From NCBI GenBank assembly GCA_963851265.1, contig CAWKNZ010000008.1, positions 1-64,000 on the forward strand: DNA of 64,000 bases. Direction: 5' to 3'. Within the stretch, counting starts at the first letter, position 1, and each line of letters starts with the position of its first letter. The stretch is from an uncultured Gemmatimonadales bacterium. Its GTDB lineage: Bacteria; Gemmatimonadota; Gemmatimonadetes; Gemmatimonadales; Gemmatimonadaceae. Positions 983-60,822 of the stretch are shown piece by piece. The notes beneath the pieces are model-generated. The model made no database searches and was not told the origin of the DNA. It saw nothing but the letters and a program-made list of their open reading frames with translations. The translations under genes were made by a program, and so were the position numbers.

Positions 983-1530
983 CGCCGCGGCGCGACGGCC
1001 GGCGAGGTTACGCGCGGGGTGACGACGGGCCAGCTGCGAACACGCGGTGATCACGGTGTTCCCCGAGGTGCCCGCGCGCGCACCGGAGCGCGTCAGCGGC
1101 AGTCACCGATACATCGCGACACGACGTCGTGACGGCGGTGCAGGAGGCCGCCACGGTCGCGATCCCCGTCATCGTGGCCGACGGTCAGCGCGCCGAGACG
1201 ACGAGCGCGCGCGGGAGGGGGGCGACTGCGGGCTGACGCGTGCGGTCGGGTGCGGCATCCTGTTAGGCGTCAGGCCGGCGTTCGGCAAAGGGCGACGTCT
1301 GCGACGGTTGCCGCGGACGTCGGCGTTTCGATGTCCCTATCGACGTCTCGGTCGAGCAGCGGCACAAGCGGCCGGTGGGCCGCCGGTCGCGGCGGACTCG
1401 GTCGGCCCCTATTCGCGCGACGCGGTGGCCTGGTGGATCCCCCGGCTGCGCCGCACGGTGCCATACCCGAGCGTTGGGGGGACAGCTCGATGCTCGCGGG
1501 GCAGGCGTCACGGCGGGCGCACCGCCCGCC

Positions 1531-1803
1531 CTACGCGAGAAAACCGGCCAACAACCGCGCGCGCCGCGAAGCGAAGGCGCCCCGGGCCTTCTCCTTGACG
1601 TGCCACACCCGCTCGCGCGTCACGCCCAAGAGCACGCCGATGTCCTCGAGTGTGATCGGCTCGCCACCGTGCCCCTGCTGCAGCGCGTTGGCCCGGCGCG
1701 CGATCCGGTGCAGCGCGCCGGCGCGGTTGAGGGGGAGGCGCACGATGCGGCCCTGGTCGGCGAGGGCCTGCCGGATCGCCTGCCGGATCCACTACACGGC
1801 GTA
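1531..1803 (-). pseudogene. RpoD/RpoS-family sigma-70 remnant
   Basis: Reads YAV*WIRQAIRQALADQGRIVRLPLNR (region 2.4, TAG at 1792-1794 in place of W), joined directly to region 4.2 TLEDIGVLLGVTRERV. Confidence 0.8.
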
Positions 1804-1808
1804 GTCGC

Positions 1809-2039
1809 GACTGGATCGGTGGTGGAGGCCGGCTGATCCGGATCGCGGTCGAGTATCGGGACGACGCCCGCCCGGGCAACGCTGTGTGGATTGAGGAACT
1901 CGCCCGCAAGTACCGCAACACCCCCGTGGGGCAGGTGATTGTGGCGGTGCGGGCGGGCTTCACGCCGGCGGCTCGCCTGCCCGCTGCATCGTCCGCGGTG
2001 CGCACGCTGACGTGGGCACAGGCGATTCGGAACGATTGA
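1809..2039 (+). pseudogene. Mrr-like (PD-(D/E)xK) restriction endonuclease fragment
   Basis: Frame with no upstream start, absent from the ORF track: IRIAVEYRDDARPGNAVWIEELARKYRNTPVGQVIVAVRAGFTPAARL...VRTLTWAQAIRND*. Resembles the Mrr_cat C-terminal half (AVECxD...GFT..A). Confidence 0.55.
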
Positions 2040-2734
2040 CTGCGAGCCGTCCATCGCGCGGCAGGCACGATCGGCGCCGTGCCCACGGCGCGCCCGCATG
2101 CCGGGCCTGACCCGTGACACCGCGTGGCTTCGGGCCGGGCCGCGTCGCACGTCGACGCTCGGCTGGGTGCGCGAAGCCAACCTCGGGCTCGACGACGCTG
2201 TCGCGCGGCGCAAGGCGCCCGGTATGTCGGTGGGGAGTGCGGTCGCGCGTGGCCGAACACCAGTCGCCTAACGTCGGTCGCCGCCGGGAGGCAGCGCCGC
2301 AAGCGCGAACCGGTTTGGCGACTCCGTGCGCGACGTCACACCCCTCGCTATTGACCGTACCCCGCCGCGGTGGCGACGATTTCGGCGTCTCTGCCGACAT
2401 TGGGGGTGACCGTAGATCGTTGCGGCTCGCCGCCACGTAGCGCCGCTGCGGTGCGGGTGCGGTCGGCGGGGCGCGGGGGCGCCGCCAGCACGCGGCCCGC
2501 GCTCGCCCGCCCGATTCCGACTCGGCGTGCGACGACGGCGGAGCCGAGCCGCTCCTCGTCACACAGCCGGCGGACGGGGAATAGTCGTCGCCGTCGCTCC
2601 GTCTCCTCGTGGGCGCGCACCGGTCGATGCTGAGCCGGCGCCGGACGTCATCGTGCGGCTGATGCGACGCCCAGGGGCCTGGCGCCGCCCCCGCACCGTC
2701 CGGCTCGTGCGCGTGCACAACGCCCGAGGTGCCC

Positions 2735-6155: not shown

Positions 6156-9100
6156 CTAGACCTCGAGGTGATCCCCGTCGCGGGCCACCAACTGATAGAG
6201 CACCGGCATCAGGAACACGCTGAGGAGCAACCGCGAGAACAGCCCACCGACGATCACCAACGCGAACGGGCGCTGCGTGTCCGATCCGACACCGTGCGAC
6301 AGCGCCGCGGGGAGCAGCCCGAACGCGGCGACGAGCGCGGTCATCATGATCGGCCGCAGCCGCAGCAACGCCGCCTCGCGCGTCGCCTCGGCGATGCCGA
6401 ACCCGTCGAGCCGGAGCTCGTTCGCGTACGAGATGTAGACCACCGCCGTCTGTACGGAGACGCCGAAGAGCGCGAGAAACCCGATCATCGACGACACCGA
6501 CAGCGCCGTGCCCGTAAGCGCCAGCGCGACGAGGCCGCCCAACGGGGCGGAGAGGATGACGCCGGCGACCGTGATCAGTGGGAACTTGAAGTTGTGGTAG
6601 AGCGCGAACAGGATCGCGAGGATGAGTACCACCGTGGTCGGCACCACCACGCCCATCTGCGCGCGCGACTCCGTGTACTGCTCGAACTCCCCACCCCAGC
6701 GCGTCGTGTACCCCGCGGGGAGTGGCACCTGGCGCGCCACCGCCGCCCGCGCGTCTGCGACAGTGCTCGCGAGGTCGCGCCCCTCGACCGAGTACTGCAC
6801 CCCGATGTAGCGCGAGTTGTCCTGCCGGTAGATGAACGCCGCTCCGCTCGCGACCGCGATGTTCGCGACCTCGTGCAGCGGGATCTGCTGCCCGCCGGGC
6901 GTGGCGAGCAGGATGTTGCCGATTTGCTCGGGGTCGGCGCGATACTGCGGCAACAGGCGCACGACGAGGTCGAAGGTCCGCTCCCCTTGCACGACCTGCG
7001 TCGCCGCCGAACCGCCGACCGCGGCCTCGACGAGGCCGTTGACGGCGGCGACCGTCAGGCCGTACCGCGCCATCTTTGCACGGTCCGCGGTGATCGTGAG
7101 GCTCGGCTGCCCCAGCTCCTGCACGAGGGTCACGTGGCTGATCCCGGGCACCTTTTCGATGACGGCCTTGATCGCGCGCCCGCGGCTCTCGAGCAGGCTC
7201 AGGTCGGTCCCGAACACCTTGACGTCGAGCGACGCCTTGAGCCCGGTCAGCGCCTCGTCCACCGCGTCCTCGGCCGGCTGCGTGTAGTTGAAGGTGATCC
7301 CCGGGTAGCTCGACAGCTTCTGCTGGATCGCGGCGATCAGCGCGTCCTTCGACCGATACGCGCCATGCCACGTGTCGTAGGGCTTGAGGCCGACGTAGAA
7401 CTCCGCGTTGAAGAACCCCGTCGGGTCCGTGCCCGCGTCGTCGCGGCCGTGCTCGGAGGCGACGACCGTCACCTCGGGGAAGCTCTGCAGCACGCGGCGG
7501 ATCTCGGGGACGACCCGCGACGACTCCTCGAACGAGATCGTGTACGGCATCGTCGCCCGCACCCACAGCGCGCCCTCGTCGAGCTTGGGCATGAACTCAC
7601 CCCCGAGCGTGGCGGCGAGGGCGAGCGAGAGGGCGAAGAGGGCGACCGAGCCGATGACGGTCGCGCGGGCGTGCGCGAGACACCACGCGAGGCCCCCCGC
7701 GTACCGATCGCGGAGCCACTCGAACGCATGATTGCGGCGCTCCTTCACGCCGCGCCGGAGCCCCCACACGCAGAGCACGGGCACCGCCGTCAGCGTCAAC
7801 GCCAGCGCGCCCAACAACGCGTAGATCGTCGTGTCCGCCATCGGCCGGAACAGCTTGCCCGACGGTCCCGCGAGCGCGTAGATCGGCAGGAACGCGGCGA
7901 CGATCACCGCGACCGCGTAGACGATCGGACGGCTCACGTCCGCCGCGGCGGCGACCACGACGTCCCGCACGCGGTATTCCGTGCCGCGCCGTGCAGCGAG
8001 CTGTCGGTAGACGTTCTCGACCATCACGACCGCGCCGTCGACGAGAATGCCGAAGTCGATCGCGCCGATCGACAGCAGGTTCGCCGGGATGTTGCGCAGG
8101 TCGAGGCAGATGAACGCGATGAGCAGCGAGAGTGGGATCGTCGCGGCGACGATGAGCCCCGAGCGCACGTCGTAGAGGAAGAAGATCAGCACGACGACGA
8201 CGAGCACGATCCCGCGCGCGAGATTGTCGCCCACCGTGCGCGTCGTCAGCTGCACGAGGTCGCTGCGGTCGTAGAACGGCACGACCTTCACGTCCTGGGG
8301 CAGCACGTGGTCGTTGAGCCGCTTCGTCTCGGCCTCGACCCGTTTGAGGACGACCTGCGCCTGCTCGCCGGTGCGCATGAGGATCACGCCTTCGACCGCG
8401 TCGTTCCGGCCGTTGTAGCCGAACTGTCCGAGCCGCGGCGCGTGCCCGATCACGACGTTCCCGACGTCCTTGACGAGCACCGGGGTGCCGTCGCGCACGG
8501 CGAGCACGATGTTGCCGATGTCCTCGGGCGTCGAGACCAGCCCGAGGCCGCGCACGTAGTAGAACTGCCCGCCCTGCGCGTAGAAGCCGCCGCCCGAGTT
8601 GGTGTTGTTGGCGCCGAGCGCGGTGGTCACGTCGCTGACGCCGAGGCCGGCCGCGGCGAGTCTGGTCGGGTCGACGAGCACCTGGTACTGCATCGTCTCG
8701 CCGCCGAGCGAGGCGACGTCGGCGACGCCGGGCACGGCGCGATACGCCTTGTCCAGCACCCAGTCCTGCAGCACGTGCAGCTCCATTGCCGACCGGTCGG
8801 GGCTCTGCACGACATACCGGTAGACGAGGCCCGACGGCGACGTGGGTGGCGTGATGCTCGCGCTCACGCCGTCCGGCAGCGTGGCGTCGCGCAGGCGCTC
8901 GATCACCTGCTGGCGCGCGAAATACAGGTCGGTCGCATCCGCGAACGTGACGCGCACGTTCGAGAGCCCGTAGAGCGAGATCGACCGCATCACGACGAGC
9001 TGCGGCAGCCCGTTGAGCTGCGTCTCGAGCGGGACCGTGATGAGGCGCTCGACCTCCTCGGCGGCGTGCCCGGGCCACTGCGTCGTGAGCTCGACCATCG

Positions 9101-9341
9101 GCGACGACACGTCCGGGTACGCGTCGACCGGAAGTCGCGACAGCGACAGCAGTCCGATGCCGACGATCGCGAACATCAGCAGGGCGACCAGGAGCGGCTG
9201 CGCGATGGCGGCGCCGACGAGGCGCTGGATCGGACCGCGGCGGCGGTCGCCGCCCGTCACCGGCGCGCGCGCCGCTGCGGGCCCCGGCGGCGGTGGTGGC
9301 GGTGCCGCGGACTCCGTCGGGGGCGGAAGCGTCGTGCTCAT
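6156..9341 (-). CDS. czcA: CzcA/CusA-family heavy-metal RND efflux permease
   Basis: LPVDAYPDVS, EEVERLITVPLE, TM4 DFGILVDGAVVMVEN, RLRPIMMTAL; ATG at 9341 overlaps the upstream stop (ATGA). Confidence 0.93.
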   Translation of the reverse strand: MSTTLPPPTESAAPPPPPPGPAAARAPVTGGDRRRGPIQRLVGAAIAQPLLVALLMFAIVGIGLLSLSRLPVDAYPDVSSPMVELTTQWPGHAAEEVERLITVPLETQLNGLPQLVVMRSISLYGLSNVRVTFADATDLYFARQQVIERLRDATLPDGVSASITPPTSPSGLVYRYVVQSPDRSAMELHVLQDWVLDKAYRAVPGVADVASLGGETMQYQVLVDPTRLAAAGLGVSDVTTALGANNTNSGGGFYAQGGQFYYVRGLGLVSTPEDIGNIVLAVRDGTPVLVKDVGNVVIGHAPRLGQFGYNGRNDAVEGVILMRTGEQAQVVLKRVEAETKRLNDHVLPQDVKVVPFYDRSDLVQLTTRTVGDNLARGIVLVVVVLIFFLYDVRSGLIVAATIPLSLLIAFICLDLRNIPANLLSIGAIDFGILVDGAVVMVENVYRQLAARRGTEYRVRDVVVAAAADVSRPIVYAVAVIVAAFLPIYALAGPSGKLFRPMADTTIYALLGALALTLTAVPVLCVWGLRRGVKERRNHAFEWLRDRYAGGLAWCLAHARATVIGSVALFALSLALAATLGGEFMPKLDEGALWVRATMPYTISFEESSRVVPEIRRVLQSFPEVTVVASEHGRDDAGTDPTGFFNAEFYVGLKPYDTWHGAYRSKDALIAAIQQKLSSYPGITFNYTQPAEDAVDEALTGLKASLDVKVFGTDLSLLESRGRAIKAVIEKVPGISHVTLVQELGQPSLTITADRAKMARYGLTVAAVNGLVEAAVGGSAATQVVQGERTFDLVVRLLPQYRADPEQIGNILLATPGGQQIPLHEVANIAVASGAAFIYRQDNSRYIGVQYSVEGRDLASTVADARAAVARQVPLPAGYTTRWGGEFEQYTESRAQMGVVVPTTVVLILAILFALYHNFKFPLITVAGVILSAPLGGLVALALTGTALSVSSMIGFLALFGVSVQTAVVYISYANELRLDGFGIAEATREAALLRLRPIMMTALVAAFGLLPAALSHGVGSDTQRPFALVIVGGLFSRLLLSVFLMPVLYQLVARDGDHLEV

Positions 9342-10522
9342 TGCGTCTCCGCGAACTGGAGGAAGAGCGCGCCCTCGGCGACGACCTGGTCGCCGGCCGC
9401 GAGCCCCGCTCGCAGCGCGTACTGGTCGCCGACCTGCTGGCCTAACGTGACCTGCCGTCGGCCGAACGAGCCGTCCGGCGCCGCCACGAACACGAACGGT
9501 AGGTTCTGCTCGTCGCGCAGCACGGCGGACACGGGGACGAGGATGTCGGTCCGCTCCCGCGCGGCGTGGATGCCGACGCGCACGAACATCCCGCGCCGCA
9601 GCACGAGCCCGCGGTTCGGCACCAGTAGACGGACGCTGACGGCGTTGCTCGCCGAGTCCACGAGCGACGCGATGTACGACACGCGCCCCGTGAGTGGGGT
9701 CGGCGCGGCGTCCGTGATCACGTCGGCCGCCTCGCCCACCGTCACGTCGCGCAGCGCGTCGGGGAACACGCTGGCCAGCACCCACACGCTCGAGAGGTCG
9801 GCGACGGTGAACGCCTGCGTGGTCCCGGCCGTGAGCAGTTGCCCCGGGCTGATGAGACGCTCGACCACGGTACCAGCGATCGGCGCGCGGATGGTCGCGA
9901 CGAGCGGCGGCGTGCCGCGGTTGTTCTCGATCGCCGAGATCTCCGCCGAACTCACGCCGAGCGCGCGCATCTGTTGGATGGCCGCGTCGCGGTCCGCGGC
10001 GGCGCCCGCGGCGTCCGTCTGCGCCTGCTCCAGGTCACGCCGGGCGAGCGCGTCGTTCTTGAAAAGCTGCGCGTCGAGCGTCGCGATGCGCGAGAGGTTG
10101 CCGTACGCGCTCTGCGCTTTGCGGAACTGGGCGACGGCGGTCGCGAAATCCGGCGACGACACCGTCGCGAGCGGGTCGCCGCGGTTCACCATCGCGCCGG
10201 GATCGACGAAGATGCGGAGCGCCGGGCCCGAGACGTCCGACAGCACGGGAGTCGAGCGGTCGCCGTTGAAGGCGACCGTTCCGGTGGTCTGCACGACGGG
10301 CTGGTAGCGCGTCGGCTGCACGGAGACGATGTGCAGGCGCGCGCGCTGCGCAGGCGTGACGGCGAAGCCCGCAGCCCGGGAGCGGGCCGGGGACGACGCG
10401 GGCGGTGACGCGGACGTGGCACTGCGGTCGGTGCCGCCGCACGCGACGGCGCTGCACGCGACGACGCCGAGCAGCGAACCTGCGGCCGCGCGCGCCGCGC
10501 GCTGATTACAACGGGTCATCAC
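9338..10522 (-). CDS. czcB: RND periplasmic adaptor (CzcB-like)
   Basis: IRAPIAGTVVER, ADLSSVWV, LRRGMFV, GLAAGDQVVAEGA; lipoprotein signal. Confidence 0.9.
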   Translation of the reverse strand: MMTRCNQRAARAAAGSLLGVVACSAVACGGTDRSATSASPPASSPARSRAAGFAVTPAQRARLHIVSVQPTRYQPVVQTTGTVAFNGDRSTPVLSDVSGPALRIFVDPGAMVNRGDPLATVSSPDFATAVAQFRKAQSAYGNLSRIATLDAQLFKNDALARRDLEQAQTDAAGAAADRDAAIQQMRALGVSSAEISAIENNRGTPPLVATIRAPIAGTVVERLISPGQLLTAGTTQAFTVADLSSVWVLASVFPDALRDVTVGEAADVITDAAPTPLTGRVSYIASLVDSASNAVSVRLLVPNRGLVLRRGMFVRVGIHAARERTDILVPVSAVLRDEQNLPFVFVAAPDGSFGRRQVTLGQQVGDQYALRAGLAAGDQVVAEGALFLQFAETQ

Positions 10523-11784
10523 GGGGCCGTGGGAAGCGAGGTGAGTGGCACGCCGAGCGCGCGCTGCAGGTCGGCGCGCGCGGAGTTCGCGGCGCCCAAC
10601 GCGACCGCGAGCTGGGTCTCGGCGTCCTGCAGCGAGCGGCGCGCGTCGAGCACGTCGAGCGCGGAGAGGCCGCCGAGTCCGTAGCTCACCGACGCGACGC
10701 GGAAGGCCTCGCGCGCCGAGGGCACGAGCTGGTCGCGTAGGAAGACCACCTGCCGCAGCGCCGTATTCGCGTTCGCGAACGCGGAGCGCACGTCCTGCGT
10801 GACCTGCGCGCGCAGATCCCGCGCGCTCGCGGCAAGCTCCCGCTCGCGATACTGCGACTCGGCGATCTCACCGCGCGTGTGCTGGCGAAAGAGGATCGGC
10901 AGCGGGAGCGCGACTCCTGCGGAGACGAGCGGCGCGTCGGGGAGCGTGAAGTCGTGCGTGATCCCGAACGTGAGGTCGGGTAGCCAGAACTGCTTGAGGA
11001 GCGTCGTGTTGGCCTGCGCCCCGCGCTGCTGGCTCTCGAGCACGGCGACCTCCGGACGCGAGGCGAGGGCGATGCGTTCGATGGTCGTCGAGTCGGGGAG
11101 CGCTGGCGGGGGCGCGAGCGAGTCGACTGGCGCGATCGGCAGCCCGATGACGCGGCCGAGCAGGCGGTTGAGCGAAGCCTGGGCGTTGGCGACGTCGCGC
11201 TCGTTGGCGATCAGGGCGTTATCGGACTGGGCGACGTCGACCTGTGCGCGGATAACGTCGAGCCGCGCGACCGTGCCCGCCGTGTAGCGCGCCTGGGTGC
11301 GCGTGAGGAACTCCATCGAGAGCTGGCGCGCCTCCTGGAGGATGGCGCGGAGCCGGCGTGCCACGAGCAGCGAGTCGTAGGTCGCTGACGTCGACGAGGC
11401 GATCGTCTGCTGCTGGAGCCGAATGTTCGACTCCGACGCGCGCACGTCGGCCGTGGCGACGCGGTTGCGCAGTCCGAACTTGGTCGGGAACGGCACGTCG
11501 AGCGCGACGCCGACCGCGCGCGACGCCGCGAGTCCGGGATTGAGGGTGGCCGAGTTTTGGGCGATGGAGCCGACCAGCGCCGGATCGGGTATGGCGACTG
11601 CCTCGACGCGGCGCGCGCGGGCCTGCGCACTCTGTTCGCGGGCGACATCAATCTGGGGATTTCGCGTGAGCGCATCGGCGATCGCGTCGCGCCTGGTCAG
11701 GCGCAAGGAATCGACGGCCAACGGCTGCGCCCGCGCGGAACGGGCCAGTGCGAGACACGCACTCAGCCCAACGACGACGCGCAT
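10519..11784 (-). CDS. czcC: TolC/CzcC outer-membrane channel
   Basis: ALTRNPQI, ARYTAGTVARLDVIRAQV, YGLGGLSALDVLDARR; translationally coupled to the adaptor. Confidence 0.9.
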   Translation of the reverse strand: MRVVVGLSACLALARSARAQPLAVDSLRLTRRDAIADALTRNPQIDVAREQSAQARARRVEAVAIPDPALVGSIAQNSATLNPGLAASRAVGVALDVPFPTKFGLRNRVATADVRASESNIRLQQQTIASSTSATYDSLLVARRLRAILQEARQLSMEFLTRTQARYTAGTVARLDVIRAQVDVAQSDNALIANERDVANAQASLNRLLGRVIGLPIAPVDSLAPPPALPDSTTIERIALASRPEVAVLESQQRGAQANTTLLKQFWLPDLTFGITHDFTLPDAPLVSAGVALPLPILFRQHTRGEIAESQYRERELAASARDLRAQVTQDVRSAFANANTALRQVVFLRDQLVPSAREAFRVASVSYGLGGLSALDVLDARRSLQDAETQLAVALGAANSARADLQRALGVPLTSLPTAP

Positions 11785-29095: not shown

Positions 29096-29151
29096 GCTGA
29101 GCGGGGCGGCCACCGTTAGGCAGCCGCGGCGCACAGTCACACGAGTTCCCG

Positions 29152-40969: not shown

Positions 40970-40982
40970 CCGCGCCGATCGC

Positions 40983-43738: not shown

Positions 43739-43745
43739 GCCGGGG

Positions 43746-44723: not shown

Positions 44724-45344
44724 ATGCGCGCTCGACTCGCGTTGTCCCTCGTCGCCGCCCTTGGCTTCGTCCCGCTCGCCGCGCGCGCCCAGACGCCGGC
44801 CGCGGCACCTGCTCCTGCCGGTGCGCCGGCCGCGACGCCGGCGACGCGCCCGAGCGCCACGCGCCCGACGGCGGCGCTGCCCGCCGCGCGGCCCCCGCAG
44901 GCCGTGCTGCCCCCGGGACCAGCGCGCGCCGCGACCCCGGGCGGGGCCAAGGTCGCGAGCGTCACGTGCAAGGATGGCACGACCGGGAAGGTCGGCCGCG
45001 GCGCGTGCGCACGGCACGGCGGCGTGACCACTGTCGCCGCGCCCGCGCCCGCTGCGGCGCGGTCCGCCGCGGTGGCGTCGGCCAACCCGGGTGGGGTCGC
45101 GCCGGCCCCGACACCCCAGGCCACCGCGGTGGTGCCGAACGGGCCCACGCGCCGGGCCTCGGCCGTGGCGCCGGGCGGTGCACCGACGCCGGCCACCCAG
45201 GCGACGGGTGCGGCGGCTGGCGGCGCTGAGAACGCCAACCCGGCGGGCGCGGTGGCGCAGTGCAAGGATGGCTCGTACTCGCACGCGAAGGGGCATCGCG
45301 GCGCGTGCTCGCGCCACGGCGGCGTGGCGAAGTTCCTGTCCTGA
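44724..45344 (+). CDS. Secreted DUF3761-repeat protein
   Basis: Signal peptide; two CKDG...GACxxHGGV motifs with Pro/Ala linkers. Confidence 0.8.
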
Positions 45345-45379
45345 GCTGACGCGTTACAGCTGACGAGTCCCGGACGGGC

Positions 45380-46249: not shown

Positions 46250-46255
46250 GGCGTG

Positions 46256-49674: not shown

Positions 49675-49909
49675 CACCTGCACAGGGGAACGCGCGCCAC
49701 GCCCGGCGGGTGCCCGGGCGTGCTCGGGGGATCGGCGGAATGTATGAAGCCGGCCCCGGGGATGTCGGCGTACGCCCGGCTCGACACGCGTGCGTGGCGG
49801 TCGGACCCCACTGTTGCGGTCGCGACGATGCCGGACGACAGAGCGGGGCGGACGCCGTGTGGCGCCGCCCCGCTCTGTCGTCCGCAGTGTCGGACGGCCT
49901 ACGACACGA

Positions 49910-50611: not shown

Positions 50612-50817
50612 GGCACCCTCGCTTCGGGGATGGACGTGCCGACACCTATCGGCGCGCCCAACGTACGGCCGGCTGGTCCGCTGCACCAGGGCGCATCGGT
50701 CGTTCGCCAGGGATCGGGCGATCCGCCGTGCGCCGAACGGGTCATCGACGGTGTCTGTGGCCTGTCGACCGCCGCAGAGCGGCATCGCGTACGCCCGGGC
50801 TCGCCTCACCGCGCGTG

Positions 50818-51525
50818 TTAGGCGCGCAACTCACGCCGGAGCCAGGCGCGCGCCACGGCCCACTCGCGCTTGACGGTCGCCGGCGAGACGCCGAGCGCGG
50901 CCGCCGTCTCTTCGAGGGTGAGGCCGCCGAAGTAGCGCAGCTCGACGAGCCGCGCCTGTGACGGGTCGAACGCCGCGAGCCGGTCCAGCGCCTCGTGCAG
51001 GGCGAGCACGTCGGCCGTGGCGTCGGGCGCGGCCACGTTCGCGCGGTCGTCGAGCGTGACGCAGACCGCCCCGCCGCCGCGCTTGGCGGCCTGCCGCGCG
51101 CGCGCGTGGTCGACGAGAATCTGCCGCATGAGGTGCGCGGCGGCGGCGAGGAACTGCGTGCGACTCTGCCCCGCGCCGCCCGCCTGCGCGGCGAGGCGCA
51201 GGTAGGCCTCATGTACGAGCGCGGTCGCGCCGAGCGTGTGTCCGGCCGCCTCGCGCCGCATCGCGAGCGCGGCCTGGCGGTGCAGTTCGGCGTAGATGGC
51301 GGGCAGGAGCGCGTCGAGCGCCGCCCGGTCCCCCGCATCGGCCGCGACGATGAGCGCCGTCACGTCGGTCGGAGGGGCGCCGGGGCCCCTGGCATCGGCG
51401 GTCGCCGCGCCGGGCGGCGTCGCGCCGAAGGCGGGCGAGTGGCCGATCCGCGAGCCGAGCGCGGGGGCGCAGGTCGGCGCGGCGGGGAAGGAGGGCAGGG
51501 AGGTGGCGTCCATCGCATCGTCCAT
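50818..51525 (-). CDS. ECF sigma factor (TIGR02999-type); start uncertain
   Basis: YAELHRQA...HTLGATALVHEAYLRL, MRQILVDHAR, LRYFGGLT, TVKREW. Confidence 0.9.
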   Translation of the reverse strand: MDDAMDATSLPSFPAAPTCAPALGSRIGHSPAFGATPPGAATADARGPGAPPTDVTALIVAADAGDRAALDALLPAIYAELHRQAALAMRREAAGHTLGATALVHEAYLRLAAQAGGAGQSRTQFLAAAAHLMRQILVDHARARQAAKRGGGAVCVTLDDRANVAAPDATADVLALHEALDRLAAFDPSQARLVELRYFGGLTLEETAAALGVSPATVKREWAVARAWLRRELRA

Positions 51526-51874
51526 CGGGCAGCCCGCGGTCGGCCGCGCGAGGCGCACGGGTCGCAGGCGTGCGACACGGCCCCCGGCGGGCGCGGGAGA
51601 AGACCGCGCGATGCCGGCTGACACCGCGCGACGATACGGGCCGCCGGGGGCGGCGTCAACACCCCGCGCGCCGCGCCGAGCCGTTTTGGTCGCGCATTCC
51701 GCATAACACGATGGGAGCAGCAAACCCGGGCCACTCTCGGCGGCGTCGTGGCGCCTCCCGGACGAGCGCGCGCCCCGCTCCCGCCCCACACCCTCACGCA
51801 CCGCGCTGCGGCGCGCGACCGCGTCCCACCACCGTCGAGCGCCACCTCAGGCGCCGCATCAGGAGACCCGCATC

Positions 51875-52129: not shown

Positions 52130-52241
52130 CCGCGGCCCGGGCCGCGGGCCAAGCCGCGGCCTAACATGCCCGCCGCGTGCCCGGAACCCGGGCCCGAGTC
52201 CGCGGATCCGGGTCCCGGGCACACACGCTGGAGACTCGACC

Positions 52242-52527: not shown

Positions 52528-52582
52528 TTATTGCCGCCGCGGGCCCTCCCGCCGCGCGGCACGCTCCCCCGACCGCCTCGTC

Positions 52583-53644
52583 ATGCGCCGCCCGCCCGCG
52601 TCCGCGCTCGTCGTCTCGCTCCTCGCGACCACCGGCGTCGTGCTCGCCTGCACCGACACGACGTCGCCCGCCGTCGACCCCGCCGCCCCGCGATTCACCT
52701 TCGCCGTGATCGGCTGCAATCGCGTCGACGCGGCCGACACGCTCGGCAACACGAGCACGGCCAACCTCGAGCAGCTCACGCGCACGTTCCAGGAGGTCGC
52801 CGCGCTCCCCACGCGCCCGCGCTTCCTCTTCTTCACCGGCGACCTCGTGTTCGGCTACACGCCCGACACGCTGCAGCTCGACCGCGAGCTGCGCGCGTGG
52901 CGTGCCGTCTACGAGGCGTCGCCGCTCCCCGCGCTCGGCGTCGAGCTCGTCGCCATGCCGGGCAACCACGAGGTGCAGAACCTCGCCAAGGTCGCCACCG
53001 CCGCGGCGGAGCGCACGTGGCTGCGCGACATGCAGCCGTACATCACGCGCGGCGGCAACGGGCCCACCGCGGGCGGCGCCGACAACCTGGCCACCGACCA
53101 GAGCAAGCTCACGTACTCGTTCGATTACTCGGGCTCGCACTTCGTCACGATCAACACCGACCCGACCGGCGCGGACTGGCACGCGCCCACCGCGTGGCTC
53201 GGCGCCGACCTCGCCGCGGCCAACGGGCTCGGCGCGCAGCACATTTTCGTATTCGGTCACAAACCCGCGTACTCGTACCCGACGGTCGCGACCGACGGCC
53301 TGTCGAAGTTCCCGGCCTCGCGCGACCAGTACTGGAGCGTGCTCACCGCGAACCACGTCGACGCGATGTTTTCGGCCCACAACCACGTGTACTGGCGTGC
53401 GCAGCCGGCCGCCGGTTCGGCCACGTGGCAGATCATCGCGGGCAACGGCGGCAGCAAGCTCGAGACGACCATCGACCCGACGATCCCGTCGACGGGCGGC
53501 TACTACGGTTTCGTCGTGACCACGGTGCGCAACGACGGGCGCGTGTTCGTGCAGAGCTACGGCCGCGACGTGCCGGCGGCCGGCTACACGGCGCCGTCGT
53601 CGCCGAGCACCGTGCGCGACTCGTTCGACGTGGTCGCGCGGTGA
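52583..53644 (+). CDS. Calcineurin-like metallophosphoesterase lipoprotein
   Basis: Lipobox VLAC; GCNR (replacing GDxH), TGDLV, PGNHE, GHKP, AHNH. Confidence 0.88.
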   Translation: MRRPPASALVVSLLATTGVVLACTDTTSPAVDPAAPRFTFAVIGCNRVDAADTLGNTSTANLEQLTRTFQEVAALPTRPRFLFFTGDLVFGYTPDTLQLDRELRAWRAVYEASPLPALGVELVAMPGNHEVQNLAKVATAAAERTWLRDMQPYITRGGNGPTAGGADNLATDQSKLTYSFDYSGSHFVTINTDPTGADWHAPTAWLGADLAAANGLGAQHIFVFGHKPAYSYPTVATDGLSKFPASRDQYWSVLTANHVDAMFSAHNHVYWRAQPAAGSATWQIIAGNGGSKLETTIDPTIPSTGGYYGFVVTTVRNDGRVFVQSYGRDVPAAGYTAPSSPSTVRDSFDVVAR

Positions 53645-55674
53645 AGCGGCCGCGCGCCGCGCTCGCCCGCGGCGCGCTCGACCGCGGCCTGCTCGGCAGC
53701 GGCGTGCTCGCGGGCGTGCTCGCGGTGATCGCGATCGCGCGTGCGCCGACGGTTCGTGCCCTGACGGTCCGCACCCTGACGGTCCGCACCCTCACGGCTC
53801 GCGCGGGCGGTCAGGGTGCGCCGACGCGGCCGGTGCCCGTGCAGGTCGACGGCCGCGCGCCCGGCGCGAACGGCGGGCCGCTCGGGGCGCGGCTGCGCGA
53901 CGACGTCGTGGCGCTCGACTCCGCCCTCGCGGGCCTGCCGCGGTGCGCGGGGCGGGGGACCGGCGGTGCGGCGTGCGCCGCGCGCGCTTTCGCCGACGCG
54001 CGCGCGGCGTACAAGCGTCAGGAGGCGCTGGTCGAACTACTCGCCCCGGCGGCGGCGACCGCGCTCAACGGCCGCCGGCAGGAGGTGGACGACGACGATG
54101 CCGCGCCGCCCGGTGCGACCGCGTCGGCCTTCGCGGCGGTCGAGCGCGCGTTGGCTGCTCCCGCGCCCGACTGGCGCGCGGCCGCGGAGGGCGTGCGGGG
54201 GGGACGCGAGGCGGTGCACACGCTCCTCGCGCAGCTCGGCGACTTCCGCATCTCGCCCCCGCTCGTCTTCGAGGCGGCGCAGCTGGAGGTGGCGCGCGTC
54301 GCCACCCTCGGCGTGACCGGGTTCGACACGCCCGACACGCGAGCCGGCGTCGGCGAGTCGGCGGTCGCGCTGCGCGGGGCCGCGGCCCTCGTCGCGGCGA
54401 CCGTGCCGGCTCCCGCCGCGGCACGCGCCGTTGCGTCGCTCGAACGTGCCGCGCGCTACGCGGCGACACGGCCCGACTTCGCGCGCTTCGACCGCCTCAC
54501 GTTCATCGCCGACTACACCGAGCCCGCGCTGCGCGAGCTGGAGCGGGCGCGGCGTTCGGCCGGCGTCCCCCGCGTCGAACGCCCGCGCGCGTGGACGGGC
54601 ACGACCCTGTTCGAGCGCGGCGCGTTCGACGTGCGCGCCTACGCGCCCGAGGCCGCCCCTCGCGCGACGCCGGCCCTCGTGGCCCTCGGCGCGCGCCTGT
54701 TCGCCGACCCCGCACTCTCGGGCGACGGGTCGCGCGCGTGTGCGAGCTGTCACGTGCCGGCCCGCGCGTTCGCCGACGGCCGCCGTGCGCCCGCGGTCGT
54801 GCGGGGCGTCGCCGGACACGTCGCCGCCGGGGGCGTCGCGCTGCGCAACACGCCGTCCCTGCTCGCCGTCGCGTACGAGCCCGCGCTCTTCGCCGACGCG
54901 CGCGCGGTCACGCTCGAGGACCAGGCGGCCGCCGTGCTCGCCAGCGCGCCCGAGATGGGGAGCAGCGCGGAGCGCGCGGCGGCGCGCGTCGCGCGCGAGC
55001 CGACCTACGCGGCCGCGTTCCGCGGCGCGTTGGGCGCCGCCCCCACCCCGCTCGGCGTTCGGCAGGCGCTCGCGGCGTACGTGCGCTCGCTCGGGCGTAC
55101 CGAGTCGCGCGTGGACCGCGCGTTCCGCGGCGACCGCGGCGCGCTCACGGCCGAAGAGCGCCGCGGCGCATCGCTCTTCCTCGGGCGCGCGGGGTGCGGC
55201 ACGTGTCACTACGCGCCCCTCTTCAGCGGCGCGACGCCGCCGCTGTTCCGGTCGGTCGACGCGGAAGTGCTCGGCGTCCCCGCCGTGGGCGCCCGGCGCG
55301 TCGACCCCGACCCCGGTCGCGGCGCGGTCGACGGCCGGCCCGAACACCTCCACGCGTTCAAGACGCCCACCCTGCGCAACGTCGCGCGGACCGCGCCGTA
55401 CATGCACAACGGGGCGTTCGCGACGCTCGACGCGGTGGTGCGGTTCTACGACGACGGCGGCGGGCGGGGGCGCGGCCTGCGCGTGCCCAACCAGACGCTG
55501 CCCGCGCGGCGGTTGCAGCTGACGGTAGACGAACGCCGCGCGCTCGTCGCGTTCCTGCGCGCGCTGAACGACGAGCCGGGCTCTGCTGTCGGTCCGTCCC
55601 CCCCGACGGTCGCGCGCCGCGACACGTCCGTTACCCGTTCGTCGGTCGATCGCGACAGAACGCGGAGACGTTAG
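53641..55674 (+). CDS. Diheme CcP/MauG-family protein with N-terminal helical domain, paralog 1
   Basis: CASCH, RNTPSL, PEMG, CGTCH, FKTPTLRNVARTAPYMHNG; GTGA overlap with the upstream gene. Confidence 0.9.
   Translation: MKRPRAALARGALDRGLLGSGVLAGVLAVIAIARAPTVRALTVRTLTVRTLTARAGGQGAPTRPVPVQVDGRAPGANGGPLGARLRDDVVALDSALAGLPRCAGRGTGGAACAARAFADARAAYKRQEALVELLAPAAATALNGRRQEVDDDDAAPPGATASAFAAVERALAAPAPDWRAAAEGVRGGREAVHTLLAQLGDFRISPPLVFEAAQLEVARVATLGVTGFDTPDTRAGVGESAVALRGAAALVAATVPAPAAARAVASLERAARYAATRPDFARFDRLTFIADYTEPALRELERARRSAGVPRVERPRAWTGTTLFERGAFDVRAYAPEAAPRATPALVALGARLFADPALSGDGSRACASCHVPARAFADGRRAPAVVRGVAGHVAAGGVALRNTPSLLAVAYEPALFADARAVTLEDQAAAVLASAPEMGSSAERAAARVAREPTYAAAFRGALGAAPTPLGVRQALAAYVRSLGRTESRVDRAFRGDRGALTAEERRGASLFLGRAGCGTCHYAPLFSGATPPLFRSVDAEVLGVPAVGARRVDPDPGRGAVDGRPEHLHAFKTPTLRNVARTAPYMHNGAFATLDAVVRFYDDGGGRGRGLRVPNQTLPARRLQLTVDERRALVAFLRALNDEPGSAVGPSPPTVARRDTSVTRSSVDRDRTRRR
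53761..53790 (+). repeat. In-frame 15-bp tandem repeat
   Basis: CTGACGGTCCGCACC x2 with degenerate flanking copies (TVRAL/TVRTL/TVRTL). Confidence 0.8.
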
Positions 55675-55770
55675 ACCGGAGCGGTGGGGCGCGCACGGTC
55701 GCGCCCCGCCGCGCCCCGCCCGCGCCCGCGTCCGAAGGACGGACCCGGCCCGCGCGCCCCGCCCCCGCTC

Positions 55771-57774
55771 ATGCCCCGTGCGACCCGGCATGCGCGCGCG
55801 GCCGGTTCCGTCCTCCTCGGCGCCGCCATCGGCGCCGGCGGTTGGACGGCCGCCCGCCCGCGCGCGATGCCGCCCCACCACTCGCCCGTCGCGTCCGCCC
55901 CGCGCGCCACGCCGCTCTGGCACGTCGACGCCGCGCTGTCGGCCCGGCTGCGCGGCCGCGTCGCGGGCGGGCTCGACACGCTCGACGGCGCGCTCGTCCG
56001 GCTCGCGGGCGCGCAGGCGGCGGACGCACGCCGCGATGCCTACCGCACCGCACGAGCCGCGTACAAGCGACTCGAGGGCGTGCTCGCCTACTTCGCGCCC
56101 CGCGAAGCGCTCGCCCTCGACGGCACGGAGGCCGAGGAGGGGGACGACAACCCCGACGCGGGGCGCGTCGTCACGCACGGGTTTCCGCGCATCGAGCGGC
56201 GCGTGTTCGTCGCGCCCGCCGCCCGCGGCGCGGCCGTGTTAGGCGCGCGCGACTCGGTGCGGGCGGAGGTGGCGCGCGCGCGCGGTGCGCTCGCCCGCGT
56301 GCGGGGCGCGCTCCCCTACCTCGCCGCCGCGGACGCGCAGCTGCTCGACGTGGCGCGCCTGGAGCTGGCGCGCGTGTGCACGCTCGGCATCGCGGGCACC
56401 GACGACGGCCCGGCCGGCGCCGCGATGCTCGACGCCGCAGCCGCCGTCGACGGCGTGCGCGCGCTCGTCGCCGACGCGGCGGACGCGGCCGGGGCGCCCC
56501 CGGCCGACGCGCGCGCGGCCGACGCGCGCCTCCGGGACGCGGCGGCCTACCTCCGCGCGCACCCGCGGTTCGCGACGTTCGACCGCTTCGCGTTCGTGAC
56601 CACGCGCGCGAACCCCGCGTTCGCCGCGCTCGCGGCCGTGGCCGCGCGCGTGCCGGCGCCCGCCGTGGCACTGCGCCAGGCGTGGCCCCGCGGCGTGGCG
56701 AGCGTGTACGACGCCCGCGCCTTCGACGCGATGGCGTTCGCCGCCGCGGACGCGCCCCGGCCGACCGCGGCGTGGGTCGCGCTCGGCCGCGCCCTCTTCG
56801 CCGACCCGGCGCTCTCGGGCGACGGCCGCCGCGCGTGCGCGTCGTGCCACCTGCCGGCGCGCGCGTTCACCGACGGCCGCGCGCGCGCGGCGGCGCTGGC
56901 ACCCGCGCGCGGCGCGGCCGTCGGCGAACGCGCGCTGCGCCACACGCCGCGCCTGGCGTACGCGGCGTGGCAGCCCGCGCAGTTCGCCGACGCGCGCGCG
57001 GCCACGCTCGAAGCGCAGGTCGACAGCGTGCTCGCGAGTCCGTCGGAGATGGGCAGCTCGACCGACGCCGCGGCCGCGCGCCTCGCGCACCGCGTCGCGT
57101 ACCGGCAGGCGTTCGCCGCGGCAACGGGCGCGCCGCCCGCGGCCGCCGTGACGCCGCACGCCGTGCGCGAGGCGCTCGCGGCGTACCTGCGCTCGCTCGG
57201 GCGGTTCGACTCGCGCTTCGACCGCGCCGTGCGCGGCGACGCCGGCGCCGCGCTGACGGGCGACGAGCGCCGCGGGTTCAACCTGTTCATGGGGCGCGCG
57301 CGCTGCGGCACGTGCCACTTCGCGCCGTTCTTCAACGGGACGGCACCGCCCGACTTCGCGACGTCGGCGGTCGAGGTACTCGGCGTGCCCGGGCGCTACC
57401 CCGTTCCGCCTAACGCCGTCCGCCCCCCGCCGGTCGACGCCGATTCCGGGCGCGCCGCGCTCGACCGCCTCGACGGACACCTGCACGCGTTCAAGACCCC
57501 ATCCGTGCGCGGCGCCGCGCACGGCGGCCCGTTCATGCACAACGGCGCCCTCCGCACGCTCGACGACGTGCTCGACTTCTACGACCGCGGCGGCGGCGCC
57601 GGGCTCGGCGCGGCCGTGCCCAACCAGACGCTCCCGCGCGAGCCGCTCCACCTCACCGCGCGCGACCGCCGCGCGCTCGTCGCGTTCCTCCGCGCGCTCG
57701 ACGAACCCGTCGGCGCGTACCCCGCCGCCCCCGGCGAACCGCCCCACCCACCAGCTCCGACCTCTACCCGATGA
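55771..57774 (+). CDS. Diheme CcP/MauG-family protein, paralog 2
   Basis: [28 protein letters not shown]...PFMHNG. Confidence 0.9.
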
Positions 57775-59138
57775 CCAGTCGTTTCACGCTTCGCGCCGCC
57801 GCCGGCATCGGCGCCGCGTGCGCCGCGGCCGCCTTCGCCGCCTCGTGCGATAGCAGCACCGCGCCCGTCTCCGCCGCCGCCTCCGACGTTTCGAAGGTCA
57901 ACCACGTCGTCGTCATCTACCTCGAGAACCGCTCGTTCGACAACACCTACGGCGAGTTCGCCGGCGCCGAGGGGCTGAGCGCGGGCGCGGCGCGCGCGAC
58001 CCAGGTGAACCTCGCCGGGCAGGCGTACACCACGCTGCCGCAGGTGACCGGCTCGCCCGTCCCGGCCACGCTGCCCAACGCGTCGTTCGACATCGCCCAG
58101 TTCGTGCCGCCGTCGACGCCCACGCGCGACCTCGTGCACCGCTACTACCAGGAGCAGCAGCAGATCGACGGCGGCAAGATGGACAAGTACGTCGCGGTGA
58201 GCGACGCGCAGGGGCTGTCGATGGGCTACTACCACACCGCGGTGCTGCCGCTTGCCGCCGAGGCCGCCAAGTACACGCTCGCCGACCACTTCTTCCACTC
58301 GGCGTTCGGCGGCTCGTTCCTGAACCACATGTACCTCATCGCCGCGGCCGCGCCCGTGTTCCCCAACGCGCCCGCGAGCATCGTCGCCAAGCTCGACGGC
58401 AGCGGCGCCCTGCTCACGGACGGCGCGGTGACCCCCGACGGATTCGTCGTGAACACGTCGTACACGGTCAACTCGCCGCACCCCGCCAGCGCCGCCGCCG
58501 CGAACCTCGTCCCCGTGCAGACCCTACCGACGATCGGCGACCGGCTGTCGGACAAGAACGTGAGCTGGGCCTGGTACTCGGGCGGCTGGAACAACGCCAT
58601 CGCGGGCACGCCGGACGCGACGTTCCAGTTCCACCACCAGCCGTTCGCGTACTTCGCCAACTACGCCGACGGCACCCCGGGGCGCGCCGCGCACCTCAAG
58701 GACGAGACCGACTTCGTCGCCGCCGCGCAGGCCGGCACGCTCCCGGCGGTGTCGTTCGTCAAGCCGTTAGGCGTCAACAACGAGCACCCGGGCTACGCCG
58801 ACATCCTCACCGGCGAGAACCACGTGGTGCAGCTCATCAACGCGGTGCGCAACGGCCCCAACTGGAAGGACGCCGCGATCATCATCACCTACGACGAGAA
58901 CGGCGGCTTCTGGGACCACGTCGCCCCGCCCACGGTCGACAAGTGGGGCCCGGGCACGCGCGTGCCCGCGCTCGTCATCTCGCCGTTCGCGAAGAAGGGC
59001 TACGTCGACCACACCACGTACGAGACGACGTCGATCCTCGCGTTCCTCGAGAAGCGCTACGGGCTCGCCCCGCTCGCCACGCACGACGCGCAGGCGGCCA
59101 ACATGCTCTCGGCGTTCGACTTCTCGCAGACCCCCTGA
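57771..59138 (+). CDS. acpA: AcpA/phospholipase C-family phosphoesterase lipoprotein
   Basis: [50 protein letters not shown]. Confidence 0.9.
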
Positions 59139-59267
59139 TCCACGCCGCGCGACGCCGGCGCGTGCCGGGCCGCCGCCAGCGGCCGGGCGCGCGGGCGTAG
59201 CGCGGAGCCAGCGGGGCGGCGTCGGCGGGGCGGTTGCGCGACGGCGGAGCGGGTGAGACGTTCGGGG

Positions 59268-59741
59268 ATGACAACCCCGCCGCCCGTGTCCGCCGAGCCC
59301 CCGTTCGTCTTCCGCGACCCCGGCGAGCTGCGCGACGGCGAGCTGACGCTCGTGCTCGACTACCGCTCGCCGGCCGACCCCGCGCGCGGCTGGATCCCGA
59401 CCTACCACTTCTCGCTCCACGTCGACGGTCGGCGCGTGGGCGGGATCGAGTTGCGCGTCGACCTGGCCGGCGCGCTCGACCACACGACGGGGCACTTCGG
59501 CTACTTCGTCGAGCCGGCGTCGCGCGGGCGCGCGCTCGCGGCGCGCGCGGCGCGCCTCGTGCTGCCGCTCGCCCGGGCGCACGGGCTCGATCCGCTGTGG
59601 ATCCTGTGCGAGCCCGACAACCTCGCGTCGCGCCGCACCTGCGAGCGGCTCGGCGCGGTGCTGGCTCCCGCGGAGGCGGGCGCAGCGGCGGGGGCGCGCT
59701 GCCGGTATCGCCTGGACGCGGCCGCCCCGCCCGAGCGTTAG
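59268..59741 (+). CDS. GNAT-family acetyltransferase
   Basis: GHFGYFVEPASRGRALA, CEPDNLASRRTCERLG. Confidence 0.85.
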   Translation: MTTPPPVSAEPPFVFRDPGELRDGELTLVLDYRSPADPARGWIPTYHFSLHVDGRRVGGIELRVDLAGALDHTTGHFGYFVEPASRGRALAARAARLVLPLARAHGLDPLWILCEPDNLASRRTCERLGAVLAPAEAGAAAGARCRYRLDAAAPPER

Positions 59742-59754
59742 GCGCGCGCGGGCG

Positions 59755-60348
59755 TCAGGCGTGCGGCCCGCACGCGTCGGCGAGGCGCGCGGCCAGGTCC
59801 ACCCCGCCGTCGCGCTGTCGCAGCCCGTTGAGGTGGGCGAACTCGTGGCGCGCGGTCTGGAGGATGGCCGGCAGGCCGCGGTCGGGGTTCAGCCGGTCGT
59901 ACCCGCGCGCGATGTGGACCGTGCCGTATTCCGCCGCGACCCCGGCCGGGTGCGCGTCGCCGGTGACCGGCATGACCTGGCCGTCCTCGTCCGTTTCGCG
60001 CCACATGTAGTCGATCATCCGTACGTCGCCCGCGTGCTCGCGCATCGTCGCGCCGAGCGCGTGGCACTGCCGCCCGAGCGCCGTGGTGTCGGCGGCGTAT
60101 CCGGTGAGGAGGCGGTCGGCTTCGGCGACGATCGCGGCGTGCTCCGCCTCGGTCGGCCGGGTGAGCGCGCACCACGCCGGATTGCAGCGCCCGTGACGGG
60201 CCGGAGCAGGTGACGGCGCACGCCCGGTGACACCCGGCCGGAGCGCGGCGAGCCCGGCCGCCGCGCGGGCCGAGGGCACGCCGAGGAGGGAAGCGAGGAG
60301 GGCGCCCGCGTAGAGCGGGCGCCGGAGTGAGGCGCGCGCGAGGATCAC
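59755..60348 (-). CDS. Secreted hypothetical protein with HExxH motif
   Basis: Signal-like N-terminus; ARHEFAHLNG; four Cys. Confidence 0.55.
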   Translation of the reverse strand: MILARASLRRPLYAGALLASLLGVPSARAAAGLAALRPGVTGRAPSPAPARHGRCNPAWCALTRPTEAEHAAIVAEADRLLTGYAADTTALGRQCHALGATMREHAGDVRMIDYMWRETDEDGQVMPVTGDAHPAGVAAEYGTVHIARGYDRLNPDRGLPAILQTARHEFAHLNGLRQRDGGVDLAARLADACGPHA

Positions 60349-60822
60349 GGATCGGTCGGGCTTCCGGGGACGGGCGGCGTCGACATCACGATGACATACA
60401 ACGCGGACCGGGAAAGGTTCGTTCTGCCGCGGTGTCGGGCGACACGCGCGCCCGGCGACGGCGAGGGCGGGCACATCTGTCGCCGCCCAGCCGCGGCAGC
60501 GCGCGGGGCGGGTGGGCGAACCGGGCGCGCGCCGCGCGGCCGACGGGCCCGCGGCGTGTAGCAGGCTTGCGCCGCACCGGGATGCCTCACATTTTGGCGC
60601 GCGTTGATACTCAATGGCGGACGGCGGCGCGGCTCGGCGGCGCGCCGCCCCCGCCGCAGCGGGGCCGGCGGGGAACGCCCGCGCCCAATGCCTAACGCGC
60701 GGCGCGTCCGACCACCGGCCGCCCCCGCCGCCCGCGCGGCCGCCGAGGAGCGCGCCCAACGGCGCGCCGAACGGCGCGCCGAACGCACGACCGCGCACCA
60801 CCCCACCCACACGGAGATTCGC

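Follow-up and report, generated by a model that had tools for sequence, protein, structure and literature searches.

GTTAGGC, a strict iterated word of patchy occurrence in the Gemmatimonadota, and its possible role as an uptake-sequence-like signal

Copies of the word in the window and in the genome

The stretch of DNA studied here comprises the first 64,000 nucleotides of contig CAWKNZ010000008.1 (assembly GCA_963851265.1) from an uncultured Gemmatimonadales bacterium of the family Gemmatimonadaceae. We refer to this whole stretch (G000:C8:1-64000) as the window and to the genome as G000. The window is punctuated by a heptamer, GTTAGGC, a word that is real, genome-wide, maintained and lineage-patchy, and that has a measurable effect on local base composition. 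A preliminary description had listed 13 copies of GTTAGGC and 15 of its reverse complement GCCTAAC in the window, and all 28 positions are exact. The excess it reported was also borne out, but its chance figure of 5-6 copies was too high: dinucleotide shuffles of the window gave a mean of 2.52 and a maximum of 6, none of 100 reaching 28, so that the chance expectation lies below the earlier one.

Genes were called with a home-made caller (3,639 genes, 87% coding, no benchmark), and its calls agree with the placement within genes that had been described. Thirteen copies are read in frame as TTA-GGC (Leu-Gly). Nine of these are on the minus strand, at 9440-9446, 29986-29992, 31737-31743, 41052-41058, 41802-41808, 42836-42842, 45551-45557, 45947-45953 and 46742-46748, the last within a menD-like open reading frame (ORF; 46256-48136). 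The other four are on the plus strand, at 19946-19952, 23126-23132 (with G at position -1), 56238-56244 (within ORF 55684-57774) and 58766-58772 (within an acid phosphatase ORF, 57771-59138). Four copies are read as CCT-AAC (Pro-Asn) from the strand opposite to the word, namely the plus-strand copies at 30460-30466 and 43544-43550 and the minus-strand copies at 57408-57414, again within ORF 55684-57774, and 60690-60696, where ORFs overlap on both strands and the frame given by the caller is uncertain. Three copies provide stop codons, as had been claimed: the TAG of ORF 40983-42083 (40981-40987, minus strand), the TAA of ORF 50818-51801 on the strand opposite to the word (50817-50823, plus strand) and the TAG of ORF 59253-59741 (59737-59743, plus strand). 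The first of these lies 71 bp from the copy at 41052, a rare close pair. Two copies fall in other frames, as GTT-AGG-C at 17635-17641 (plus) and as nGC-CTA-AC on the opposite strand at 42375-42381 (plus). The remaining six lie outside called genes, at 1262-1268 (plus, T at -1), 2266-2272 (minus, C at -1), 15598-15604 (minus, G at -1, overlapped by the mechanical ORF 14472-15608), 23861-23867 (plus, G at -1), 29115-29121 (plus, near the start of the minus-strand mechanical ORF 27269-29140) and 52159-52165 (minus, T at -1).

The complete genome holds 1,762 copies (885 and 877 by strand), and confinement of the enrichment to the window is excluded, since every one of the 12 contigs carries 33-55 copies per 100 kb. 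The word stands at 18 times the order-2 and 14 times the order-3 Markov expectation and is the top-ranked 7-mer of the genome at order 2. Significance was not lost when codons were shuffled: 1,285 copies lie in called coding sequences against a mean of 57.6 and a maximum of 72 in 20 protein-preserving shuffles of synonymous codons, a 22-fold excess. The proposal of a genome-wide signal at the DNA level is thus upheld by enrichment on all contigs and above the codon-shuffle null. The base at -1 is C in 79% and T in 14% of copies and T is infrequent at +1, with no other preference in the flanks.

Genome-wide, 993 copies are read as TTA-GGC, 201 as CCT-AAC and 89 in other frames, while 189 overlap stop codons and the other 290 are in no called gene. 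The rarity of TTA that had been pointed out was confirmed together with its association with the word, as 993 of the 1,277 TTA codons in the genome sit inside it. Opportunities are filled to a similar extent in both orientations, with 366 of 2,535 Ala-Leu-Gly and 51 of 255 Ala-Pro-Asn tripeptides used. The word acts as duplex DNA, independent of message and frame. Translational control through TTA codons was ruled out by the equal saturation of CCT-AAC and by the copies at stops and in spacers; a tRNA-Leu(TAA) is present. Among tripeptides, ALG (2,535) exceeds its reverse GLA (1,646) and MPN (58) exceeds NPM (20), and PLG and APN are not above their reverses. Taken without a motif-poor control, the excess may reflect an influence of the word on proteome composition.

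Replichores could be oriented for contigs C2, C5 and C7 only, and there the absence of polarity of the Chi or KOPS (FtsK orienting polar sequences) kind, noted earlier in the window, was confirmed with gene strand controlled. The raw leading to lagging ratio is 590:472, and the replichore effect vanishes under this control (13.2 versus 13.5%, p 0.75; 13.0 versus 12.4%, p 0.84). KOPS-like sites on the same contigs are polarised 309:139. The word is neither part of dif nor polarised toward it, and it is not clustered at parAB. A role as the XerD arm of dif was rejected, the dif-like site (C2:1368945-1368972) being without the word. KOPS polarity switches at that site, and a xerC-like gene is 22 kb away; the region around it has strongly leading-strand-biased genes, like the ter-centered region described in PMC11237797. 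A word-free stretch of 45 kb (C1:182876-227962) spans mnmG-, parAB- and mnmE-like genes, with A/T at four-fold degenerate sites raised to 8.7-9.5%. Exclusion by parS was ruled out, as this gap at C1:183-228 kb has no counterpart in the relatives G298 and G234; in G004 the gaps there measure 12 kb and 8 kb.

Spacing, conservation and local base composition

Copies of the word avoid each other at short range. In-frame pairs number 2, 8 and 15 at distances of 0-100, 100-200 and 200-300 bp, versus 36, 35 and 35 expected from 200 permutations over the same amino-acid opportunities (ratios of 0.05, 0.23 and 0.43), and they come near expectation from 500 bp. When all sites are considered the short-range deficit is present in all three orientations, and the mean deficit is absent in control heptamers of similar abundance (150/253). 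Small samples from other motif-rich genomes mostly agree in spacing, with noise.

Sites are conserved above the synonymous background, in preferred frames. In samples of 240 kb from each genome, orthologues share 18 of 26 G000 sites with G004 (3.6 expected) and 31 of 46 with G001 (6.4 expected). The TTA within the word is kept at 10 of 17 (G004) and 17 of 27 (G001) orthologous sites, about 60%. Four-fold codons ending in A or T are kept in only 6% in the same comparison, so that the word is retained roughly ten times better. As to variation within populations, the one run with a small share gave contigs with scattered short pieces only, which speak for neither side.

On the genome average, a copy also stands at the center of a halo enriched in G and C. 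At four-fold degenerate sites the A/T share is 3.5% no more than 60 bp from a copy, climbs to 5.0% by 200-300 bp and reaches 7.3% at a distance of 1.2-2 kb. The halo is symmetric on both sides of the word and independent of its orientation, it has the same direction on 12 of 12 contigs, and its zone spans roughly 1 kb; when fitted, the halo decays over a length of 504 bp with a logit shift of 0.78. The effect is seen within single genes, where A/T is 3.8% near and 6.3% far from the word (478 genes lower, 161 higher, n=642, p 6e-34). Control anchors (xCG-Leu-GGC without the word and five other heptamers) were essentially flat within genes, the deepest dip being 0.88 for GGTAGGC. The halo is strong when the base at -1 is C or T (3.8-3.9% A/T) and weak when it is A or G (5.7%), which indicates that the working site is the octamer YGTTAGGC.

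All codons ending in A or T are depleted near the word, even ATT, a codon that is not avoided in highly expressed genes, and the trend extends to intergenic DNA. Consequently, the force is directed toward G and C and is not translational. It is also directional, since swaps between G and C are flat with distance from the word, as is amino-acid identity. Furthermore, the halo follows whichever genome carries the word. Where the word is nearby in the relative only, A/T in G000 is 6.4% (background 6.7%) and in the relative 2.7% (background 5.0%); comparison of carriers gave 3.9% versus 6.4% in G000 (p 0.001) and 4.1% versus 2.7% in the relative (p 0.018), with sites pooled and not independent. 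The halo constitutes a site-centered, GC-ward signal within genes at about 1,760 places per genome, on which the old question of whether bacterial GC content is shaped by recombination (GC-biased conversion) or by repair can be tested directly.

Distribution in the phylum

All four of the same-genus genomes compared were rich in the word. In an even sample of the phylum, 12 of 300 genomes exceeded 100 copies per Mb (a hand count of the table); the same family accounts for 9 of these (70 sampled), a sister family for 3 (125 sampled) and the 105 genomes from elsewhere for none. Copy numbers reach 2,703 in G001, which has long contigs, and 7,758 in G012, and densities in G008, G017, G018 and G030 range from 156 to 284 per Mb. 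The word recurs in three families and may be on or off within a single genus, where G234 and G291 hold about 6,000 copies each and G287 holds 99. Motif-rich genomes are scattered on a quick tree of one gene, that of an orphan methyltransferase. Sampled intermediate genomes have solitary copies without cassette arrays, and no convincing replacement word was found in samples of 17-100 kb from motif-poor genomes. The unpublished genome G011 appears as one motif-poor row in our tables, and no conclusion rests on it.

Dialects between genera are slight, with GTTAGGY in G012 and CGTTWGGC in G008. On contig G008:C20 a two-word dialect was observed, CGTTTGGC (25 copies versus 2.8 expected in 57 kb) standing beside CGTTAGGC. 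A cultured strain, Gemmatirosa kalamazoonensis KBS708 (PMC3974934), is also motif-rich, its plasmid 1 (NZ_CP007129.1) carrying 42 copies in the 50 kb read versus 1.2 expected. When the plasmid collection was searched with 16S and cusA, no close relative came up. This strain and the natural on/off pairs within one genus offer material for experiment.

Our literature search, which left subscription journals for the most part, REBASE, methylome files in GEO and supplements outside its scope, returned no description of the word or of such a motif in this phylum; the sole match to the whole word was in a cancer paper. To our knowledge, only two families of bacteria have established self tags that are sequence-specific; a third case, the highly iterated palindrome HIP1 of cyanobacteria, is debated. 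The strict word of the Gemmatimonadota would therefore be a new system whichever mechanism holds. In kind it is a variant of the iterated-signal words, with no reader found among the candidates tried.

A candidate donor signal and its alternatives

Among the candidates named in the preliminary description, an uptake sequence fits best with the patterns recovered from sequence. We propose that YGTTAGGC may be a donor-preference, uptake-sequence-like recombination signal that spreads by molecular drive and is surrounded by GC-biased conversion, a proposal that in our judgement stands about an even chance of being correct. A putative reader protein would favor word-carrying fragments in homologous gene transfer, probably natural transformation, and such fragments would replace word-less alleles more often than the reverse. 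This drive would keep an AT-rich word in place at the very center of the zone where the pull toward GC is greatest. Little would be gained from a further copy within the length of a fragment, which would give the exclusion zone, and extra heteroduplex repair in word-centered tracts would give the halo, either by GC-biased gene conversion or by more effective selection for GC.

The argument for drive begins with the word itself, which requires two or three AT-ward changes at the very point where the GC-ward force is strongest and should therefore be favored in its own right. A hotspot that cuts itself would erode, so that word-bearing DNA is presumably the preferred donor, or else is selected. 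If donors were preferred and tracts ran to several hundred bases, a single length scale would cover the abundance of the word, its exclusion zone and its halo. As in PRDM9 hotspots with GC-biased conversion, a short motif occupies the center of a local bias toward GC. PRDM9 motifs erode because the motif-bearing copy gets cut; the present word, in contrast, accumulates, and word-bearing DNA would be the favored donor. PRDM9 is also mentioned in PMC4866539.

The closest known systems are the DNA uptake sequences (DUS) of Neisseriaceae, which are read by the minor pilin ComP, and the uptake signal sequences (USS) of Pasteurellaceae. Like these, the word is non-palindromic, occurs on both strands at one copy per 0.7-2.6 kb in the richest genomes, has preferred reading frames, is conserved above its surroundings, varies slightly between genera and resides in hosts with a full set of uptake genes. 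Unlike them, it is short (8 bp), lacks a ComP match and almost entirely lacks terminator pairs, shows strong short-range exclusion, is abundant in a mobile element, is unevenly distributed within a single genus and draws on the rarest codon for Leu. We met no description of a GC halo in those portions of the DUS and USS literature that were covered. By analogy, the word would appear to work most like DUS and USS, and we do not file it as a member given the missing ComP match and terminator pairs.

Genes of a transformation apparatus are present. Genes for comEC, a ComEA-type HhH protein and a ComM-type protein were found in 56 of 56 Gemmatimonadales genomes each, and dprA, pilB/T and recA were found by motif search. 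Furthermore, 53 of the 56 genomes encode an orphan FimT-like pilin ending in GRVR, with a FimU/FimT fold, that is likely a general DNA receptor and so suggests competence in the order; a GRxR motif of FimT is described in PMC8897410. In G000 this pilin (C7:452369-452776, minus strand) has an invariant VSRLGRVR tail and a net charge of +13. Its homologues, found under the names Gemmatirosa sp. (72%), Roseisolibacter sp. (59%) and Gemmatimonadaceae, place the organism in that family. In Haemophilus influenzae, uptake of short fragments peaks at USS centers, and two USS within 100 bp add nothing, as reported in PMC7811141. Should the word prove to be an uptake tag, it may also be of use in transforming this phylum, whose members are difficult to manipulate.

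A number of observations weigh against this proposal. No candidate family in the reader search tracked the abundance of the word. ComP_DUS (PF16732) gave no match over cut-off in 5 of 5 motif-rich genomes, a result that does not extend to unrelated receptors, and in FimT, with multiple testing allowed for, no residue set 6 motif-rich loci apart from 33 motif-poor ones. A PilX-like tip protein does not track the word, and motif-poor genomes have the competence genes just as often. Among the papers listed in the literature search, none reported that members of this phylum are naturally competent. The halo is weak or unclear in G298, G012, G205 and G008, though clear in G001, G004 and G234+G291 (a cruder gene caller being used for these other genomes), and within the window it is not significant (5.3 versus 5.7%, 61/1,156 versus 263/4,633, p 0.67). 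Four-fold identity near the word is flat to slightly higher, and Neisseria DNA near DUS is reported in PMC2397512 to be more divergent. The link between GC and recombination was weak or absent in most of the ten species studied in PMC4866539, and known USS are described in PMC7811141 as without short-range depletion, 17% lying within 30 bp. Inverted pairs closer than 50 bp, of the kind that DUS and USS form at terminators, number only 6 genome-wide. Finally, rarity in mobile or recently acquired DNA, a hallmark of uptake sequences, was not clearly seen in two comparisons of small numbers: a 15-kb integrase-primase element on G298:C4 carries 14 copies, and nine lineage-specific genes carry 2 copies in 7 kb versus 12 in 43 kb of shared genes, an equal density. 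The G298:C4 unit, which is partly repeated in its contig, has integrase and primase genes like those of a phage satellite, and no viral relatives of its primase were found.

Other candidate readers were set aside: presence of comEC, ComEA-type HhH, ComM and FimT is independent of abundance, and neither the other pilins of five genomes nor a stand-alone IntI N-terminal domain tracks the word.

A bolder form of the donor-signal proposal is that the word belongs to a third, independent family of uptake self-tags, outside Proteobacteria and cyanobacteria, that was borrowed from the attC core of integrons, with an accessory reader gene gained and lost across the Gemmatimonadales and with each copy acting as a recombination hotspot that leaves a footprint of GC-biased conversion. 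We advance it tentatively, as a possibility that is on balance improbable.

The alternative that survives best is a loading or nicking site for repair, of mismatches or of deamination and oxidation damage, from which an enzyme would scan about 500 bp each way and lower mutation from G:C to A:T; selection for coverage would maintain both the sites and their spacing. It predicts the symmetric halo, the exclusion zone and the conservation alike, and sequence comparison by itself separates it from donor preference in neither direction. Moreover, it requires no DNA exchange and fits the high density of the word in the resident mobile element of G298:C4. Genes like mutS and mutL were found by motif search, and in Escherichia coli GATC acts on mismatch repair with distance and on both sides, judging from the title of reference 32 in PMC4390886. 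However, MutH, NucS and NurA are missing in every one of 5 genomes tested and DUF559 in the 3 motif-rich ones among them, the published methylome has no methyl mark at the word, overall synonymous divergence is not clearly lower near it, and by a rough estimate selection of about 1e-8 to 1e-7 per site would demand very large populations. We consider a repair site doubtful, though deserving of serious attention.

A nucleoid or sliding-clamp protein that nucleates at the word and spreads over a few hundred bases, organizing or shielding the DNA, would leave the halo as a by-product of protection and would be in line with even spacing, independence of orientation and symmetric decay. A structural role has been proposed on spacing grounds for HIP1 (PMC5861425). 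This explanation is quite improbable given that the word is missing from the greater part of the phylum and even from G287, whose two congeners G234 and G291 have about 6,000 copies, that DNA sampled from motif-poor genomes holds no replacement word, and that the 45-kb parAB gap of G000 is not common to G298 or G234.

The attC R box of integrons is defined as GTTRRRY, and the match to this core that had been pointed out was verified and extended. In G000, G021, G023, G120 and G139 no attC R box is commoner than this word, C or T at -1 included. Among the attC sites of G000, 3 lie at C6:0.9-2.3 kb and 13 are listed at C10:188-215 kb, the R box being GTTAGGC in 7 of the latter, and in the motif-poor G021 the form C-GTTAGGC occupies 19 of 22 detected R boxes; those of G006 and G060 read GTTGGGC. 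Such a match is unlikely to be due to chance. One possibility within the donor-signal proposal is that a DNA receptor first favored cassette DNA and that drive then spread the word, and identity with the attC core bears on the movement of integron cassettes. The word could instead be a by-product or target of the integron, with IntI or a derived protein binding the attC/attI core and driving or exploiting the dispersed copies. Besides the shared letters in five genomes, this reading has in its favor the frequency of integrons across the order (39 of 56 genomes) and the recurrence of the same word in three families. We hold this to be quite improbable nonetheless. IntI does not track abundance (15 of 22 rich versus 23 of 31 poor genomes, p 0.76), and the long-contig genome G001 has no IntI match. 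About 99% of copies are solitary, mostly inside genes and without a hairpin partner, and attC-like spacing is depleted; only the C10 and C6 arrays have paired R boxes 57-141 bp apart with a hairpin. The dispersed word is strict, whereas attC sites of the same genome tolerate GTTCGGC, GTTAGGT and GTTGGGC. Known genomic targets of IntI share only a GWT consensus, according to bioRxiv 2022.09.11.507474. The chromosomal integron of G000 itself (C6:1-6086 and C10:188000-215025) has attC sites of 89-112 bp, an intI (C6:5202-6086) apparently interrupted by an inserted recombinase-bearing element, and, judged from translations, a probable toxin-antitoxin pair among the C6 cassettes.

The resemblance to HIP1 (GCGATCGC) also invites a reading in which the word is kept by a cognate DNA methyltransferase. 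HIP1 is likewise an iterated 8-mer, selected regardless of codons and non-randomly spaced, its function being debated and a link to transformation proposed (PMC5861425 and PMC13756078). The obvious enzyme would be the orphan Eco57I-type protein at C7:582086-585511, the sole DNA adenine methyltransferase candidate by motif search besides two short RsmD-like proteins, and kept in 30 of 31 relatives across the order, which gives it a domesticated look. Unlike HIP1, the word is not a palindrome, has no cognate methylation that we could find and has no alternative in motif-poor relatives. The enzyme is equally conserved in motif-poor genomes, and windowed identity of this protein and its SNF2 partner, both order-wide, does not separate rich from poor. 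The SMRT (single-molecule real-time) methylome of KBS708 revealed only RGATCY, ATGCAC and CCAGN7TCA as methylated motifs (PMC3974934), without the word though the plasmid of the strain is word-rich; these 2014 data could miss 5-methylcytosine or unusual marks. A C5 methylase is missing in 9 of 10 motif-rich genomes checked, that is, in G000-G004 and 4 of 5 further ones (the check covered these five with G012, G234, G291, G298 and G205; the enzyme is present in G158 and partially matched in G018), and G000 has no beta-class N6/N4 or C5 methylase. The methylation-linked reading, which the preliminary description had entertained, is thus very unlikely. The methyltransferase (1,141 aa) adjoins an SNF2 helicase at C7:579717-585511.

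Chi sites of RecBCD and AddAB are asymmetric 7-8-mers with leading-strand polarity and one-sided action. A Chi-like site, at which a nuclease that resects DNA ends would spare self DNA or initiate recombination, would agree with the asymmetry of the word, its embedding in genes through a favored frame, its similar density and its recombination-like halo, and is largely refuted, with scarcely any probability left to it, by the absence of leading-strand polarity, by a halo and an exclusion that are symmetric and independent of orientation, and by strong matches to AddAB-type nuclease (PF12705) in 2 of 22 rich versus 12 of 31 poor genomes (p 0.025). We treat this negative association as no more than a lead, since the threshold (E <1e-20) was chosen after seeing the table, 3 intermediates were dropped, kin are not independent and many assemblies are incomplete. 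Note that G000 is one of the two rich genomes with a strong match, RecBCD not having been searched by its own family model; G001 and G004, of the same genus, are without a strong match, and the AddAB of G000 may therefore reflect later acquisition or differential loss. It consists of an AddA-type helicase-nuclease with an AddB-like partner in two ORFs (C3:244574-251614), adjoining rmuC.

Several minor features accompany these results. Genome-wide, CTAG occurs at 0.18 of the maximal-order Markov expectation, and the 6-bp palindromes AGCGCT (0.55), CACGTG (0.73) and GAGCTC (0.75) are also depleted. In the window, a CusA-type efflux system lies at 6156-11784, a menaquinone cluster with menF-, menD-, menB- and menE-like genes at 42135-49683, whose part from 42135 to 46748 holds four copies of the word, and genes for two MauG-like di-heme proteins are at 52531-57774.

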